Shown: in pieces, positions 2,961 to 6,923 of the stretch
Layout: every line of letters begins with the position of its first letter
Numbering within the stretch: position 1 is the stretch's first letter
Virus record (IMG/VR): IMGVR_UViG_2713896900_000009
Source: a virus
Lineage: Duplodnaviria; Heunggongvirae; Uroviricota; Caudoviricetes
Direction: 5' to 3' (one strand)
Length of the DNA stretch: 15,634 bases
Notes under the pieces: model-generated
What the model was told of the DNA's origin: nothing
Seen by the model: the letters and a program-made list of their open reading frames with translations, nothing else
Databases searched by the model: none
Translations under genes and position numbers: made by a program

Positions 2961-3164
2961 TTACTGGCAGCGTCTGAATTTATTCCCATACCCGCCGTTA
3001 TCCTTCGCCAGACCCGCCAAAACTAACTGCGTCAGTATCAACTGACACCGGGCTTCGCTTACCCCGGTAATACTCGTCATCGCACGGGGCGTTATCCACT
3101 TGTCAGCAGGTAAGAAATGAAGGACTGTGGCGGCGGTTTCTGTCATATCTTGCTGTTTTAGCAT
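2961..3164 (-). CDS. Small hypothetical protein (67 aa), possible helix-turn-helix fold
   Basis: ORF from the track with a plausible ribosome-binding site (AGGT about 8 nt upstream of the ATG at 3164). The segment ITPRAMTSITGVSEARCQLILTQLVLAGL is helix-turn-helix-like. No family recognised; could be spurious. Confidence 0.3.
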   Translation of the reverse strand: MLKQQDMTETAATVLHFLPADKWITPRAMTSITGVSEARCQLILTQLVLAGLAKDNGGYGNKFRRCQ

Positions 3165-3284
3165 GTCTTTTTACCTTTTCTGGTTAACCTGACACACCAA
3201 TAACTCTTGTCTAAAAAGCCAGCAAGATAAAAAGTCGGTATTCACCTCCACCAGCACGTTTACTGTACTGGACCGCTTTTTGGC

Positions 3285-3311
3285 ACAAAAAAACCCGCTC
3301 GGAGGCGGGTT
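3285..3311 (-). terminator. Intrinsic terminator oriented for minus-strand (late-direction) transcription; candidate tR'-like site
   Basis: Read on the - strand: GC hairpin (CCCGC/GCGGG stem, 3293-3308) followed by a run of seven U (plus-strand A-run 3285-3291). On the + strand the same hairpin has only three T after it. Confidence 0.5.
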
Positions 3312-3423
3312 TAAGCTGTGTGGCGAAGTAACCACTCTTAACACAATACAATAGTTTTTGCGTACGCGTTAGCATTTTTGTTAAAGTATAAAAATGTAAT
3401 TAAACCAGTATGTTATCACTACA

Positions 3424-4308
3424 ATGAAATGCATCCGAAAACATCCAGCAATAGCTTATACAGTAATTATTTTAGTTTTTGCCTTAATATACAATTTCAC
3501 TTGGAGCGTCAATCCAGATTCTTTCATTAAAAACAACGTTCTCAACTCTACACCTGTATATGATGCCGTTAATTTAGCATATGCGAACAATGAGGTAAAA
3601 AAAGAAGATCCTGTCAGTGTTTCGAGGGAAGTATTTGCAGAGCAAATTTTAACACTTACAAATCAATTCAATAAGATAATAATTGAAAACTTAGAACTTG
3701 AAAAAACATTATCTCAACAGCAAGAAAAATTAAAACAAATTAGTGAAAGACAATCAATAAAGTGGGGCGAAAACACCAAAAAATACATAGCAGACAGTTT
3801 GAAAGATTTACACAAAACGCTTATCACTAAAAATAGTGAACGTACTGCCATAACATCTTTAAAAAACAAAACAAATGAAAGTCAGATTAACATTATGCTG
3901 GCCGACAAAGATGAAGAAATAGCCAAAATAAACCTTGAAATAGCGTATAAAGAAAATGATGCTAATGTCTATATCTTATCTCATGTCGGCGACTTTAACG
4001 ATCCAATAATCGTTAATGAGCTTGACGCAATCAATAAAGAAATTGAGAAAACAAGAACAAAAATAATAAACAATAAAAAGAAAATAATGGAGATAAGGAA
4101 TAAATCTCAATCTATGCTGGAGAAACTCAAAAAAGATGACCTTAACTTTTGGGATTTCTTATTTTATAGCATAGGAATATCTACAACGACCACCTTTGGT
4201 GATTTGTTAGCAAATTCAAGACTTATCAGACTGATAGTTTGCGTGCAACTTTTACTATCAATTATAGTTTTAGCTAACGTAACTCAAAGGTTTTTATCAA
4301 AAAAATAA
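3424..4308 (+). CDS. AT-rich cargo (moron) gene encoding a membrane protein: N-terminal transmembrane segment, long Lys/Glu/Asn-rich predicted coiled-coil, C-terminal pore-loop-like two-helix module. Function unknown
   Basis: 294-aa ORF on the strand opposite to every neighbouring phage gene. Composition is visibly far more AT-rich than the flanks, with AAA/AAT/ATA codons dominating. N-terminal hydrophobic stretch AIAYTVIILVFALIY. C-terminus FWDFLFYSIGISTTTTFGDLLANSRLIRLIVCVQLLLSIIVLA resembles the pore-helix, filter and inner-helix of a K+ channel (for example the KcsA region LWWSVETATTVGYGDLYPVT) but with a non-canonical filter. Hairpin terminators flank it on both sides. There is no strong Shine-Dalgarno upstream. 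Confidence 0.6.
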   Translation: MKCIRKHPAIAYTVIILVFALIYNFTWSVNPDSFIKNNVLNSTPVYDAVNLAYANNEVKKEDPVSVSREVFAEQILTLTNQFNKIIIENLELEKTLSQQQEKLKQISERQSIKWGENTKKYIADSLKDLHKTLITKNSERTAITSLKNKTNESQINIMLADKDEEIAKINLEIAYKENDANVYILSHVGDFNDPIIVNELDAINKEIEKTRTKIINNKKKIMEIRNKSQSMLEKLKKDDLNFWDFLFYSIGISTTTTFGDLLANSRLIRLIVCVQLLLSIIVLANVTQRFLSKK

Positions 4309-4343
4309 AAAACAAAGCCCTCAAAAATGAGGGCTAATTTAAA
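4309..4343. terminator. Bidirectional intrinsic terminator between the convergent moron and Q genes
   Basis: Perfect 8-bp hairpin AGCCCTCA-AAAA-TGAGGGCT (4316-4335). On the - strand it is followed by a long T-rich tract (TTGTTTTTTATTTTTTT), on the + strand by AATTT. Confidence 0.6.
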
Positions 4344-4345
4344 CC

Positions 4346-4705
4346 TTAAGATAAGAACGATAAAATCCCGTCCAAAAATCCTAGTGCAGTTTGAAGTTCT
4401 TTTCTGACAGTACCATCTGAACATTTTCGTTTCTTTGCGATTGTACGGAGTGAAATACCAATAACAAAGTGAGCAATTAATAATTCATATTCTTCTGGTT
4501 TATATTTACGCAACCGCGCCACACAACCGTCTATCATGATCCCTTCATCATCATCACACTGAAGGCGTGTTTTTTTACCATGAGGTAAAAGCCCCTTGAA
4601 ACCAGCCGCTATCGGCTGCCAGTCCACACCGCTGTTATCTGCTGCTGCCCATGCTCCCCAGCGGTCTAACACCTCGTACATATCACGCATCAAATCTCTC
4701 CACAA
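4346..4705 (-). CDS. Q: Late-gene antiterminator Q (phage 82 / QuuD-like family)
   Basis: 119-aa translation matches my recollection of the E. coli prophage Q homologue QuuD and the phage-82 Q family (LDRWGAWAA; IAAGFKGLL; QCDDDEG..IDGCVARLRK; KCSDGTVRK; Cys-rich motifs). It sits between the nin-like block and the lysis genes. Confidence 0.75.
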   Translation of the reverse strand: MWRDLMRDMYEVLDRWGAWAAADNSGVDWQPIAAGFKGLLPHGKKTRLQCDDDEGIMIDGCVARLRKYKPEEYELLIAHFVIGISLRTIAKKRKCSDGTVRKELQTALGFLDGILSFLS

Positions 4706-4707
4706 AA

Positions 4708-5703
4708 TCAGGCCAGCACACCAATTGCCAGCGCGCGATCGATAAATCGAAAAATCAGCTCCAGTTGGGAACCATACTTCTCTTCAAACGCCACGGTGTC
4801 CGCATGCAGCTCGTCGTGATGCTTTCTGCACAATGGCAACACAAAGAGGTCATGCGCTTTTGTACCCATTCCACCCTGACCGTGACCTATCAGGTGATGG
4901 GGATCATCAGCAGGCTTTCCACAACATGCACACGGCTGCCTCTTAACCCAGCGCGTGTACTTTTCATTAACCCAGCGGCGGCGTTTTGGGCGTAACATAA
5001 AAGACTCCGGCGACTCCGGATCCACTTTCAGCGCCAGCACCTTTTTCGCTTTATCCTGGATGATGCTGGTGGCAGGAACCGAAGGCACAAGGTCACTTTC
5101 CCGGGTGACAGACGGCACAACAGGTTTCGGTAATCTCAGCGCCTTACGGGCTGCGCTTTCAGGTAAGGCATCCGCCAGGTCATTACGAATCAGCCACCAG
5201 CACAGTTCCGGCATTGTCACGGCATGGTTATCATCAAAACCGAGATCCCGACGGACTACAGACAACACCCAGCGGGCACAGTTATCCGTTGCCATTGATT
5301 CCAGCCGTTCCGTGAACTGATCGCGCAGCTGGTTATCGCAGTGCCAGCACAGACGGATTGCTCCCGGAGCGTGTCGCATTGTGGTCATGTTCTCGCTGTG
5401 CCAGTCGGAATGAGGCCACTGGCAGCCTTTTTCACGAAGTAACCAGCTTTCAAGACATTCCACGCCACCAGCACGACGGATCACAGCCTCATTGCGGAAC
5501 ACGGCCCGAACGGCTGGATCATCCGCCAGCGGTTGTGATGCCGCCGGAACGGCACCACTGGCGAAAGATGAATAACGTTCCGGCTCAGGCTCCAGCAGGA
5601 CACGCCCCTGCATAAACAGGGGCATCAGCTCTGAACCTGGTCTGAACAATACGATCCCCATACGCGGGGCAATTTCAGGGGTCAGTAGTGCTCTCACGGT
5701 CAC
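4708..5703 (-). CDS. DUF968-family prophage protein (YdfU-like) with a C-terminal Cys/His HNH-like motif
   Basis: 331-aa ORF packed 2 nt from Q and 2 nt from the upstream gene. The C-terminus CACCGKPADDPHHLIGHGQGGMGTKAHDLFVLPLCRKHHDELH is a Cys/His cluster typical of DUF968/HNH-like proteins of lambdoid nin regions. Assignment is from recollection. Confidence 0.55.
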   Translation of the reverse strand: MTVRALLTPEIAPRMGIVLFRPGSELMPLFMQGRVLLEPEPERYSSFASGAVPAASQPLADDPAVRAVFRNEAVIRRAGGVECLESWLLREKGCQWPHSDWHSENMTTMRHAPGAIRLCWHCDNQLRDQFTERLESMATDNCARWVLSVVRRDLGFDDNHAVTMPELCWWLIRNDLADALPESAARKALRLPKPVVPSVTRESDLVPSVPATSIIQDKAKKVLALKVDPESPESFMLRPKRRRWVNEKYTRWVKRQPCACCGKPADDPHHLIGHGQGGMGTKAHDLFVLPLCRKHHDELHADTVAFEEKYGSQLELIFRFIDRALAIGVLA

Positions 5704-5704
5704 C

Positions 5705-6514
5705 TCAATGAACGGTATCGAGCAGCTTTAACAGCTCAGGGAATCGGGATTCGAAGAAATGCGGCTGCGTCTCGCGCGGATTTGCGGGACTGGTGATGTT
5801 CTTGCCGAACATGCAGCCTTTCGCTGTCAGCGACCAGAATTTTTTGATGTTGTTAATCGCGGTACGGCTGTATCGTTCGCGCTGCTCGACGATCCCCAGC
5901 TTCACCATCTGGTGATATGCCTGATTAGCCGTCAGGCGGATACCATACTGTTTCAACAGTGCACTCAGTGACAGTGTCGGGCGACTTGAGCCATCGTGTG
6001 CATCAGCAGGAGCATCAATGGCATAGCGTGGTGCCAGATTCGGTAAGCCAACAGCCTCCTGGAGTTTCTGACAGGCCCCAAGCACAGATGAGTTAGACAG
6101 GTTTAACTCCCGGCGCATAAAGTCCAGCAGAATCACGCCAGCCTGCATCTTGTCAGCAGCCTGCCCGGATAATTTTTCCGGTGCGCTGGTTACCATATCG
6201 AAAGTACGGATCACCTTCAGATGGAATGACGGGCTGATCCACATTGCATAGGCATACACCAGTTCCTTGCAGACATAAGTTCCCCGTTCATTTCCACCAT
6301 GAATCACACTCACCGGGTCAACACCCAAATTCTGGGTGTTGGTCAATTCATGAACAAGTTCAACAGTTTGTTGGCTGGAAAGAAACTTTCCTGGCTCCTT
6401 GGTTCTGGCATTTGCACCAAATGCTACTGCTGCGCGATGCAGATCGTTCAGGCTGTAACGCCCATAAGCATCACGACGAACTTCAATACCATCAATGACC
6501 ATCAGATTATTCAT
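5705..6514 (-). CDS. KilA-N domain antirepressor-like protein (start at internal Met with strong ribosome-binding site; track ORF extends to 6616)
   Basis: Translation from MNNLMVIDGIEVRRDAYGRYSLNDLHRAAV ... TYVCKELVYAYAMWISPSFHLKV fits the KilA-N domain pattern. The C-terminal half is AntA/KilA-C-like. AGGAG lies 8 nt upstream of the ATG at 6512-6514. Confidence 0.7.
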   Translation of the reverse strand: MNNLMVIDGIEVRRDAYGRYSLNDLHRAAVAFGANARTKEPGKFLSSQQTVELVHELTNTQNLGVDPVSVIHGGNERGTYVCKELVYAYAMWISPSFHLKVIRTFDMVTSAPEKLSGQAADKMQAGVILLDFMRRELNLSNSSVLGACQKLQEAVGLPNLAPRYAIDAPADAHDGSSRPTLSLSALLKQYGIRLTANQAYHQMVKLGIVEQRERYSRTAINNIKKFWSLTAKGCMFGKNITSPANPRETQPHFFESRFPELLKLLDTVH

Positions 6515-6533
6515 ACTTCGTTTCTCCTCTTGA

Positions 6534-6923
6534 TCAGGCGGCTGCACCCGCCGTTTTCTCGTACTTACTGATAGTGATCTCGACCTTCCCTCCCGGGATA
6601 ACCGGTCCCCACTCAACCAGCATTCTTTTCACCTGACTGTCGTCTTCCCACACACCCGCATGGGTCGGGGCGTCAAACAGCGCCTTGTTATAGTTGTCCA
6701 GATCGCGGATCCGGTTATCCGGAGGAAACAACACGATCTCCACTGAAGCAGGTGCCGACGTTGGTTTCGGCAGGCGACGTAACTGCTCAACTATTGCTGC
6801 GCACGCCGCGCTCTGGAATTTGCGCCCCGCTGCGCTTATCAGACTCTTACCAGCAAACGCCCCTTTGTTGGGGTGTCGCCAGTACGTGTTCACGCTGGGC
6901 GGGAAAGGCAAGATCAGCTTCAT
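6534..6923 (-). CDS. rusA: Holliday-junction resolvase RusA
   Basis: 129-aa translation carries the RusA signature as I recall it from E. coli RusA (PPSVNTYWRH; RDLDNYNKALFDAPTHAGVWEDDSQV; VEITI). Typical nin-region position. Confidence 0.75.
   Translation of the reverse strand: MKLILPFPPSVNTYWRHPNKGAFAGKSLISAAGRKFQSAACAAIVEQLRRLPKPTSAPASVEIVLFPPDNRIRDLDNYNKALFDAPTHAGVWEDDSQVKRMLVEWGPVIPGGKVEITISKYEKTAGAAA

Follow-up and report, generated by a model that had tools for sequence, protein, structure and literature searches.

Among the described systems closest to the protein reported here is Hailong, whose effector HalA is reported to be a tetrameric channel that depolarises the cell when it is released (PMC13434031). 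The nucleotidyltransferase HalB keeps this channel closed, and HalA is DNA-gated and has a pentapeptide-repeat or cytoplasmic crown domain that binds oligo-dA. Canonical two-transmembrane (TM) channels such as KcsA, KirBac and NaK share a T-x-G-Y/F-G filter and a short turret, while K2P channels have two P-loops per polypeptide and a helical extracellular 'cap' that follows the first TM helix and precedes the first pore helix. Viral miniature K+ channels also exist and depolarise the host. One of these, Kcv, consists of little more than a TM1-P-TM2 pore, with almost nothing in the cytoplasm; its filter is canonical and its turret short, it forms part of the virion of eukaryotic viruses, and its proposed role is a depolarisation that excludes further infection. 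Kiwa KwaA, Zorya ZorAB, RexB, P22 SieA and HK97 gp15 also reside in the inner membrane, are often prophage-borne, and sense or block envelope events or depolarise the cell, with Kiwa, Zorya and Rex being multi-gene systems. To our knowledge, few defences detect infection from the periplasmic side; Kiwa and Zorya do so, with several proteins.

The sequence analysed is a 15,634 nt stretch of a Caudoviricetes virus (IMG/VR record IMGVR_UViG_2713896900_000009), referred to here as the window, in which a plus-strand gene at 3424–4308 encodes a 294-residue predicted inner-membrane protein with a K+-channel-type pore. The order of elements within the protein is TM1, coiled-coil hairpin, pore helix, filter and TM2, and it is identical to an NCBI protein named 'ion channel' (e.g. 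EGH37183.1). A chance open reading frame was rejected, as 302 stop-free codons run through the locus where 1000 shuffles gave 69 on average and never more than 145, 108 homologues were found, and comparison with the Citrobacter orthologue gave a dN/dS of 0.31; the gene is real and under purifying selection. Its G+C content is 0.304 (GC3 0.281), neighbouring genes range from 0.43 to 0.57, the window minus 3396–4340 has a value of 0.489, and the lowest-GC 885-nt segment in the whole sequence starts at 3381. The abrupt AT-rich shift that an earlier sequence-only reading had judged by eye was therefore borne out by calculation. Its proposal of a horizontally acquired single-gene cargo also held, as the gene is foreign and AT-rich and the neighbours of its homologues change with context. 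A megablast search of the locus against 5,426 complete Escherichia coli genomes returned just an 85-bp pR' block, with the cargo gene absent, and tblastn against 50,697 GenBank phages gave no match to the protein.

Between position 1 and ∼10.2 kb, every gene with a Pfam assignment is encoded on the minus strand (Rz, endolysin, holin, MTase, Q, DUF968, KilA-N and RusA), and in the near-identical locus L003 the next plus-strand gene encodes a cI-like repressor. This agrees with the description of the cargo gene as the sole plus-strand gene in about 10 kb. It had also been described as antisense to late transcription, which proved incorrect: late transcripts start beyond the gene, which is located upstream of pR', and do not run through it. 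The right boundary of the insertion site is the late antiterminator gene Q (PF06530, E = 5.6e-45; 4346–4705, minus strand), which is convergent with the cargo gene, their stop codons lying at 4346 and 4308, respectively. The left boundary is a backbone block (3313–3372, minus strand) that is kept in all phages with this Q type regardless of cargo, and which is the inferred site of pR' and the Q-binding element, with pR' being placed to within 3313–3372. An invariant TTTTTGCGTACGCGTTAG (3355–3372), which includes the palindrome GCGTACGC at 3360–3367, closes this block, and homology to other cargo classes stops after ...GCGTACGCGTTAG at 3372. The site is a genuine cargo hotspot, as had been supposed for the junction between Q and the lysis genes, although its position is between Q and pR'/tR' rather than between pR' and lysis.

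Both hairpins that had been proposed to insulate the gene are real, and both score as minus-strand terminators in a consensus scan, but only the right one belongs to the cargo. The left hairpin (3291–3312; dG −15.7 kcal/mol, z −3.7, minus strand) is homologous to the annotated SfV terminator downstream of Q, and is therefore the tR'-like intrinsic terminator of the late leader transcript, a backbone element of the phage and no insulator of the cargo; scanning, folding and SfV homology agree on this. The right hairpin (4316–4335; dG −13.9 kcal/mol, z −5.9, plus strand) was identified by scanning and folding as an 8-bp, G+C-rich stem between the convergent stop codons. Its U-tract is good on the minus strand and poor on the plus strand, and it is probably a two-way terminator. 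We assign it to the cargo because each alternative cargo class brings its own, different hairpin at the equivalent position. The cargo-specific upstream region (3373–3423, plus strand) presumably holds a −10 element and the translation start region. A consensus scan found no plus-strand promoter upstream of the gene and no Shine-Dalgarno sequence was recognised in 3373–3423, so expression of the cargo in the lysogen is an assumption. Manual inspection of this part of the locus also gave weak promoter candidates that we do not claim: TTGCGT (3358–3363) with TAAAGT 18 nt downstream, and TGTAAT (3395–3400).

Across 80 IMG/VR loci with the same Q, the distance from Q to pR' takes at least 14 discrete values, and the inserts responsible are all AT-rich and all in one orientation. 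Among these alternative modules, PADLOC matches identified PD-Lambda-5 A+B (E = 1e-92), an NsnA/PD-T4-2_A-like protein (6e-46) and PDC-M53 A+B (1e-31 and 2e-54), and another insert encodes an RTasMBL/LmuA-like MBL-fold protein. The Q-pR' site is thus a cargo hotspot with known or candidate defence systems.

Hydropathy, AlphaFold and Pfam all supported the proposed architecture of an N-terminal TM segment, a Lys/Glu/Asn-rich middle and a channel-like C-terminus. The protein has two hydrophobic segments (residues 8–28 and 265–287), and Lys, Glu and Asn make up 35% of residues 46–235. TM1 (residues 8–29; 3445–3510, plus strand, as are all features of the protein) was defined by hydropathy, charges, an AlphaFold helix and alignment, and its residues F19, Y23 and W27, which are invariant or nearly so, lie on one helix face. 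It is followed by the motif P31-D-S-F-I-x-N-x-x-L-N-x-x-P44 (3514–3555), identified from invariant columns in 41 sequences, which is predicted to lie next to the pore mouth on the periplasmic (outer) face of the membrane. The coiled-coil hairpin, or tower (3625–4125), consists of helices 68–144, 152–186 and 194–234, modelled with AlphaFold pLDDT values of 92–97, the longest being 77 residues, or ∼11 nm; it is inserted at the position of the extracellular turret of K+ channels. The pore helix (242–253) and the filter T254-T-T-T-F-G-D260 (together 4147–4203) were located by hhalign, HMMER and invariant columns, and the TM2 inner helix (266–293; 4219–4302) by hydropathy, AlphaFold, and alignments to Pfam and PDB profiles. 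Structure prediction covered the monomer; a separate AlphaFold model of the C-terminal 67 residues was poor (pLDDT 66.8), with the filter modelled as a helix, and was left out of the fold search.

Seven K/R-rich residues precede TM1 (net +3) and a few follow TM2 (TQRFLSKK, net +3), and the tails are K/R-rich across the family alignment. By the positive-inside rule the tower, the sole large extramembrane domain, is probably periplasmic: just 7 and 8 residues lie outside the membrane at the K/R-rich ends, which makes a periplasmic location of the large domain the most likely one. With this topology, any trigger would have to be detected in the envelope rather than the cytoplasm.

The C-terminus matches Pfam Ion_trans_2 with 24.5 bits against a gathering score of 22.5, and most homologues carry a precomputed Ion_trans_2 assignment too, so the profile-HMM check that had been suggested for a channel family came out in its favour. 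A whole-protein profile searched against PDB sequences gave coiled-coil noise and a weak match to Lmo2059, whereas a pore-only profile retrieved almost exclusively K+ channels, with HMMER pore alignments to Lmo2059, AKT5 and NaK. TM1, a re-entrant pore helix, a filter loop and TM2 of the K+-channel superfamily are all present, and the modelled fold is K+-channel-like. Alignment of the filter to KcsA TTVGYGD by hhalign placed Thr257 opposite KcsA Gly77, in keeping with the observation that TTTFGD replaces the canonical TVGYGD. The K+-selectivity signature T-x-G-[YF]-G-D is thus replaced by T-T-T-F-G-D, and all 41 of the 41 aligned family members have Thr where the first Gly would be. A filter that lacks the first glycine of GYG makes K+ selectivity doubtful. 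This substitution could even abolish conduction altogether, in which case the motif might serve assembly only.

Conservation is distributed very unevenly along the protein. Mean pairwise identity is 74% in the pore helix/filter, 65% in the PDSF motif and ∼20% in the tower, and dN/dS is 0.13 in the pore compared with 0.37 in the tower, the fastest-evolving part of the protein. GISTTTTFGD and the pore-lining residues of TM2 are invariant among sequences of only 20–25% identity. This contrast fits a fixed effector that carries a fast-evolving surface.

A survey of homologue neighbourhoods, suggested earlier as a search for enrichment at the same junction, found the same Q site in a Citrobacter prophage, where the homologue adjoins HicAB, and otherwise led to prophages of P2 type, to defence islands and to a transposon. 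The homologues in the P2-like prophages, from Enterobacter, Lelliottia and Pantoea, adjoin ogr, with a TIR_2 gene nearby in Enterobacter, and a Yersinia homologue adjoins an integrase. One island combines the homologue with nSTAND3, ArdC, HD/HD_assoc and OLD-TOPRIM+UvrD. Vibrio homologues lie beside Mrr_cat-nSTAND1 or within a TniQ-Csy (Tn7-CRISPR) transposon, and Vibrio relatives have an overlapping upstream gene for a 226-residue single-TM protein, given which some family members may need a partner. The Shewanella homologue shares its contig with a pentapeptide+Ion_trans_2 (HalA-like) gene 3.4 kb away. The neighbours change from each context to the next, save for an HD-domain gene shared by two related islands, and no partner gene common to the enterobacterial contexts was found; the channel gene stands alone.

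PADLOC-DB v2.0 (2023; 5027 models), which covers RexAB, Kiwa, Zorya, PD-T4/T7/Lambda, Rst and PDC candidates among others, gave no significant match to the protein, the best being PDC-M68B (E = 0.048) in the coiled-coil part, and there is no family model for it in NCBIfam or PHROGs. The sequence-only reading had likewise placed it in no described defence family, and a literature search found no description of the channel-tower family and no accession match. P0024 and P0068 had no PADLOC matches, and P0085 had weak matches of coiled-coil type only (SoFic, E = 0.0066; BnzB, E = 0.038).

Comparison with Hailong revealed a shared pore module in different surroundings. Both proteins are defence-associated membrane proteins with a pore of the K+-channel clan, which in a HalA-like E. 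coli protein is assigned to Pfam IRK (Ion_channel clan) alongside Pentapeptide domains. The family pore profile aligned with the pore/TM2 of a pentapeptide+Ion_trans_2 protein (hhalign E = 2.6e-6), with the stretch GD(I/L)xxN(S/N) in common. However, the cargo gene lies between the pR' block and Q, with no HalB, its product has only 7–8 predicted cytoplasmic residues and no Pfam Pentapeptide match at E ≤ 10, and membership of Hailong was rejected for want of both HalB and a pentapeptide domain. The protein also differs from HalA in its extra, probably periplasmic, domain between TM1 and the pore helix and in its filter, TTTTFGD instead of GYG. No chain named HalA appeared in the PDB sequence or fold searches.

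The remaining comparisons are more distant. Where KcsA, KirBac and NaK have the first filter glycine, the cargo family has an invariant Thr, and their short turret is replaced by a coiled coil of ∼190 residues; unlike canonical two-TM channels, the protein lacks a cytoplasmic gating/ligand domain and is found on mobile elements. The tower recalls the K2P cap in position and there is a weak profile match to TRAAK, but the tower is about three to four times longer and the protein has one Ion_trans_2 stretch, one pore helix and two TMs. With a single pore domain and no second P-loop, the K2P name that NCBI gives to some members is a misnomer. Kcv resembles it in being virus-encoded and nearly devoid of cytoplasmic parts, but differs in filter, turret and virion association. 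PADLOC, Pfam and PHROGs revealed no similarity to Kiwa, Zorya, Rex, SieA or gp15, whose folds differ, and the cargo is a single gene in contrast to the multi-gene Kiwa, Zorya and Rex.

We regard this gene as a self-contained Q-pR' cargo of an SfV/mEp460-like lambdoid prophage that most likely encodes a one-protein anti-phage (abortive-infection/exclusion) effector, a reading to which we give an even chance and in which the defence role is suggested through guilt by association. The protein would reside in the inner membrane, its two short K/R-rich ends being cytoplasmic, and, like other P-loop channels, would probably form a tetramer whose pore is built from TM1, pore helix, filter and TM2, with the ∼11 nm tower projecting into the periplasm above the outer pore mouth. 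In the lysogen, the pore would be kept shut. A superinfecting phage would disturb the envelope through tail/ejection proteins, a peptidoglycan breach or deformation of the inner membrane, and this disturbance could act on the tower and the invariant PDSF motif to open the pore. The TTTTFGD filter, without the first Gly of GYG, would pass cations non-selectively, the membrane potential would be lost, and DNA entry or phage development would stop. If expressed constitutively, a depolarising channel would have to be tightly gated, and the protein has no recognised gate. In its most specific form, this proposal is a one-protein envelope-breach alarm in which tail/ejection proteins displace the tower, the glycine-less pore opens and the cell is depolarised before phage DNA is established; so detailed a version is tentative, and we consider it rather unlikely.

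The same topology would suit a non-lethal superinfection exclusion protein, in which a periplasmic tower binds or blocks the ejection apparatus of incoming phages (tape-measure/ejection proteins or their inner-membrane receptor), comparable to P22 SieA, HK97 gp15, T4 Imm or TP-J34 Ltp, and the channel-like part mainly serves as a tetramerisation/anchoring scaffold or causes only a local change in ion flux. The sole sizeable domain is predicted to be periplasmic, where DNA enters, the tower evolves as fast as expected of a surface that tracks phage proteins, the gene is borne by lambdoid and P2-like prophages, and the missing filter glycine may preclude conduction. However, a mere scaffold would hardly account for the absolute invariance of GISTTTTFGD and of the pore-lining TM2 residues, family members are also found in defence islands of chromosomes and in a transposon, alongside systems of abortive type, and Pfam, PHROGs and PADLOC show no similarity to known Sie proteins, which together leave this explanation unlikely. 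We also consider it unlikely that the protein is a lysogenic-conversion channel, supplying the host with a K+/cation conductance for osmotic, acid or membrane-potential homeostasis or for colonisation, with no anti-phage role. Membership of the K+-channel superfamily, the plain NCBI name, the frequency of fitness factors among prophage morons and the lack of any known defence phenotype are in its favour, but a presence in fewer than 1 in 5000 complete E. coli genomes is unexpected for a housekeeping-type channel. Recurrence in phage hotspots, defence islands and CAST cargo of many genera, PD-Lambda-5 and other defence candidates at the same site in sister phages, the absence of all the cytoplasmic ligand-sensing domains that physiological K+ channels of bacteria typically have, and a filter without the glycine needed for K+ selectivity all argue in the same direction.

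The proximity of HicAB in Citrobacter and the occurrence of a putative pore-forming-type inner-membrane protein on mobile elements would fit a membrane toxin for prophage/island maintenance (addiction/stress-death), or a component with an unlinked or host partner that is not itself the phage sensor, and the overlapping upstream gene of the Vibrio relatives could then be a regulator. With no antitoxin-like partner conserved among variable enterobacterial neighbours, and with the hotspot junction on one side of the gene and its own terminator on the other, this is very improbable. Least plausible is an accessory to the lytic cycle that would tune membrane potential for holin timing or DNA ejection, for which proximity to Q and the lysis cassette and the precedent of depolarising viral miniature K+ channels such as chlorovirus Kcv can be cited; the gene runs opposite to the late operon and, being upstream of pR', lies outside it, unrelated cargos replace it in sister phages with the same lysis genes, and homologues occur outside phages. 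An actual late-operon or lysis gene was rejected on the same grounds of strand and position.

If the anti-phage reading is correct, a single 294-residue protein would both detect a phage and execute the response and, with essentially no cytoplasmic part, would have to sense the attack from the periplasmic side. It would give bacterial immunity a second K+-channel pore, of a different architecture from that of Hailong HalA, and a minimal model both for turret gating and for what a filter lacking the first GYG glycine conducts. In its envelope-alarm version, this would be a new class of single-gene defence in which infection is sensed outside the cytoplasm, the first protein of the K+-channel superfamily whose only sensor is a periplasmic coiled-coil tower of ∼11 nm built into the turret, and a new way to gate a P-loop channel. 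Regardless of the channel gene, the Q-pR' hotspot, with its sharp, invariant junction, belongs to a group of lambdoid prophages that is common in E. coli, and most of its at least 14 cargo classes are uncharacterised, which provides a ready candidate list for defence screens.

The window is the right arm of a lambdoid Escherichia prophage of the SfV/mEp460 type, and megablast of the window matched phage mEp460_4F5 (85% coverage, 93% identity) and SfV (68% coverage). On the minus strand it encodes Rz (414-881), an endolysin (865-1341), a holin (1345-1752), a 350-aa N6/N4 DNA methyltransferase (1758-2810), a 67-aa ORF (2961-3164), Q (4346-4705; PF06530), a DUF968/HNH protein (4708-5703), KilA-N (5705-6616) and RusA (6534-6923). 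Of the large late-operon genes the methyltransferase gene comes first, between tR' and the holin gene, and its product matched a PADLOC type II methyltransferase model (E = 4.7e-152). No partner for restriction was apparent from the window's ORFs and Pfam assignments, and the enzyme is probably an orphan, anti-restriction methylase.

The sole plus-strand gene before the cI-like repressor (plus strand, about 10.5 kb) is the ORF at 3424-4308, which the sequence-only reading had singled out for its isolated orientation and its abrupt shift to AT-rich composition. Both features were confirmed: computed G+C was 0.304 (GC3 0.281), compared with 0.489 for the window without 3396-4340, and the lowest-GC 885-nt segment of the entire sequence begins at 3381. 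The stop-free run extends over 302 codons; when this DNA was shuffled 1000 times, the mean was 69 and the longest run 145. Comparison with a Citrobacter orthologue (82% identical) gave a dN/dS of 0.31 for the whole gene, with 0.13 for the pore and 0.37 for the tower, a coiled-coil hairpin that separates the first transmembrane helix (TM1) from the pore helix. The gene is functional, with a pore that stays fixed and an outer domain that diverges rapidly.

DNA alignment showed that 3150-3372 is common to the window and mEp460_4F5, and that a Citrobacter prophage with the same Q type shares sequence from the terminator onward. Among 80 IMG/VR loci encoding this Q, the distance from a conserved block (3313-3372, minus strand) to the Q stop codon fell into at least 14 discrete sizes from 621 to 3000 bp, and the window's own 954-bp class accounted for 4 of the 80. 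The inserts are all AT-rich (G+C 0.30-0.39 versus about 0.5) and every insert gene is oriented from the conserved block to Q. Homology always ends immediately after an invariant TTTTTGCGTACGCGTTAG (window 3355-3372), which includes the palindrome GCGTACGC, while at the Q-proximal end the Q stop codon is followed directly by a G+C-rich hairpin specific to each class. The Q-pR' interval (window 3313-3372 and 4336-4345; compared loci L030-L109) is a recombination hotspot with TTTTTGCGTACGCGTTAG as its left junction.

The variability of the Q-proximal side, together with the conservation of Q (at least 86%), places pR' and the Q-binding element within the conserved block. The hairpin at 3291-3312 is tR', a terminator being annotated at the homologous position in SfV. 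It had been proposed that hairpins insulate the gene on both sides; both do fold strongly, but the left one belongs to the phage as tR', and the one at 4316-4335 is the cargo's own, with a better U-tract on the Q strand. The gene had also been called antisense to late transcription: it does lie on the opposite strand, but late transcripts do not cross the cargo, which converges with Q and is located upstream of pR'. Many of the cargo classes have a TAnnnT hexamer (TATATT, TACAAT, TAAAAT, TAGTAT and others) 17-18 nt downstream of an invariant backbone TTGCGT (window 3358-3400), which suggests a hybrid promoter with a phage -35 and a cargo-supplied -10; the window's corresponding -10-like hexamer is weak (TTAAAG/TAAAGT).

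On present evidence, the site between Q and pR' reads as a defence hotspot. Alternative cargos include PD-Lambda-5 A+B (B subunit, E = 1.4e-92), an NsnA/PD-T4-2_A-like protein (E = 5.6e-46), the PADLOC candidate PDC-M53 A+B (E = 1.3e-31 and 1.7e-54) and an MBL-fold RTasMBL/LmuA-like protein (E = 1.6e-11), and two further classes comprise an NA37-like protein and an unassigned partner protein. The commonest class is a plus-strand pair of 308 and 182 aa (WP_000868396.1 and WP_001131905.1, the latter bearing TM segments), found in complete E. coli chromosomes (L028:3128-4589 and L029:3128-4589); in mEp460_4F5 (L001:3608-4534) the first gene (308 aa) alone is annotated. Neither protein of this pair had a Pfam match, nor the 308-aa protein a PADLOC match, and among the members scanned most cargos had no match to Pfam or PADLOC (pairs of 308+182, 273+160 and 350+179 aa; singles of 427 and 187 aa).

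The architecture anticipated for the protein was recovered, with two hydrophobic segments (residues 8-28 and 265-287) on either side of a region that is 35% Lys+Glu+Asn. The proposed profile-HMM search matched Pfam Ion_trans_2 at residues 239-290 (24.5 bits against a curated cut-off of 22.5, E = 2.5e-5), and this domain is also precomputed for most of the homologues. Structure prediction of the monomer, also proposed, gave an AlphaFold model (pLDDT 83.7, from a 41-sequence alignment) with TM1 (8-29), three long tower helices (68-144, 152-186 and 194-234; pLDDT 92-97), a pore helix (242-253), a loop (254-260) and TM2 (266-293). Foldseek matches of the whole model were coiled coils only, and a profile of the last 67 residues retrieved K+ channels almost exclusively from PDB sequences, the best being Lmo2059 (E = 5.6e-4). 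In all alignments YSIGISTTTTFGD falls on KcsA WSVETATTVGYGD, so the filter is T-T-T-F-G-D, in which Thr replaces the first GYG glycine. This glycine (KcsA Gly77) is required by the canonical four-site K+ filter, and the pore is therefore expected to be non-selective or otherwise unusual. The N-terminal seven and C-terminal eight residues each have a net charge of +3 and are K/R-rich family-wide, so by the positive-inside rule both termini should be cytoplasmic, as in the canonical K+-channel topology. The helical hairpin of ~190 residues would occupy the turret position on the periplasmic side, with a longest helix predicted at 77 residues (about 11 nm), and practically no cytoplasmic mass would be present.

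A word-indexed search returned 108 homologues of about 280-330 aa from Enterobacterales, Vibrio, Shewanella, Psychrobacter and others, named 'ion channel' or 'potassium channel family protein' by NCBI, and 1.84 billion representatives, searched exhaustively with a profile, yielded 164 full-length relatives at E <= 1e-30 and 331 at E <= 1e-10. Invariant residues are F19 and Y23 in TM1, P31-D-S-F ... N41 ... P44 directly after it, and D244, S249, G251 and T254-T-T-T-F-G-D260 in the pore region; mean pairwise identity was 74% in the pore helix and filter combined, 65% in the motif that follows TM1, and about 20% in the tower. The K2P name given to some members by NCBI was rejected because only one pore domain is present; the closest structural analogue of the tower is the K2P extracellular cap.

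The gene is a rare cargo. It was not found in 5,426 complete RefSeq E. coli genomes (query 3300-4400, megablast sensitivity); the identical protein is encoded on 61 draft-assembly contigs, and E. albertii and E. marmotae have close variants. The identical protein is always at the Q-pR' site, and the Citrobacter orthologue is at the same Q-adjacent site beside HicAB, in a phage whose lysis and head genes differ. A group at 57% identity occupies an island together with nSTAND3, ArdC, an HD/HD_assoc protein and an OLD-TOPRIM+UvrD (Gabija-like) pair, and a related Yersinia copy adjoins an integrase and the same HD gene. This convergent 408-aa HD/HD_assoc (dGTPase-like) gene follows the 56-57%-identical homologue in Enterobacterales (L009:9175-10401) and Yersinia (L018:9150-10376), which may mean that two single-gene defences travel together or that an island fragment is shared. 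P2-like prophages of Enterobacter, Lelliottia and Pantoea have relatives at 23-33% identity adjoining ogr; in Enterobacter a TIR_2 gene is close by.

Vibrio relatives are found beside Mrr_cat-nSTAND1 or in TniQ-Csy transposon cargo, and overlap an upstream 226-aa gene encoding a single N-terminal TM helix and a helical domain (L025:7331-8011, L026, L027). This protein, a possible partner of the channel protein, received no family assignment and is not present in the enterobacterial loci; in L027 the gene pair is just downstream of TniQ-Csy2/3/4 of a Tn7-like CRISPR-associated transposon. No neighbour is conserved across the enterobacterial contexts, one HD-domain gene recurring in two related islands only, so the channel gene would work alone or with host factors.

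Collectively, we are confident that this cargo of a defence hotspot is a real, selected gene and that its product is an inner-membrane protein with a pore of the K+-channel type. The sequence-only reading was largely upheld computationally, with corrections to the transcription geometry, the left hairpin, the possible sensing side of the membrane and the likely ion selectivity. An anti-phage function of some kind is the role we favour, by a modest degree. That the effector step is an ion leak through the conserved pore, leading to depolarisation, is at best an even proposition, and it seems rather unlikely that the pore is gated by an event in the periplasm that the tower senses. Under rival explanations the protein would exclude DNA entry without killing the cell, serve as a physiological conversion channel, act as an addiction-type toxin or be an accessory of the lytic cycle. 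The gene is a strong and specific candidate for a new single-gene defence.

PADLOC v2, NCBIfam and PHROGs models gave no match to the protein, and a literature and accession search found no paper on the family, although its coverage was incomplete and an earlier description is possible. We class the protein as a putative fit to the membrane-depolarising effector theme, outside every described family. The nearest concept is Hailong, in which the tetrameric channel HalA is held shut by HalB-made oligo-dA and depolarises the cell once a phage nuclease removes that DNA (review PMC13434031). An E. coli HalA-like protein combines Pfam IRK with pentapeptide repeats (PMC13092281, supplement; PMC13586616). 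The family profile matched the pore/TM2 of a Shewanella pentapeptide channel at E = 2.6e-6, compared with E = 0.021 for KcsA. Unlike Hailong, however, the channel protein has no HalB and no pentapeptide or cytoplasmic domain, its own filter differs and its insertion is predicted to be periplasmic.

A Shewanella copy of the channel gene lies 3.4 kb from the gene of that pentapeptide channel (pentapeptide+Ion_trans_2; L111:10900-11847, 315 aa). The product of the latter has an N-terminal TM1-P-TM2 pore, whose TTLGYGD filter is canonical, and after it a cytoplasmic coiled coil and pentapeptide repeats. This domain content is HalA-like, in an order unlike that of the E. coli HalA-like protein, and the downstream genes encode proteins of 87 and 387 aa.
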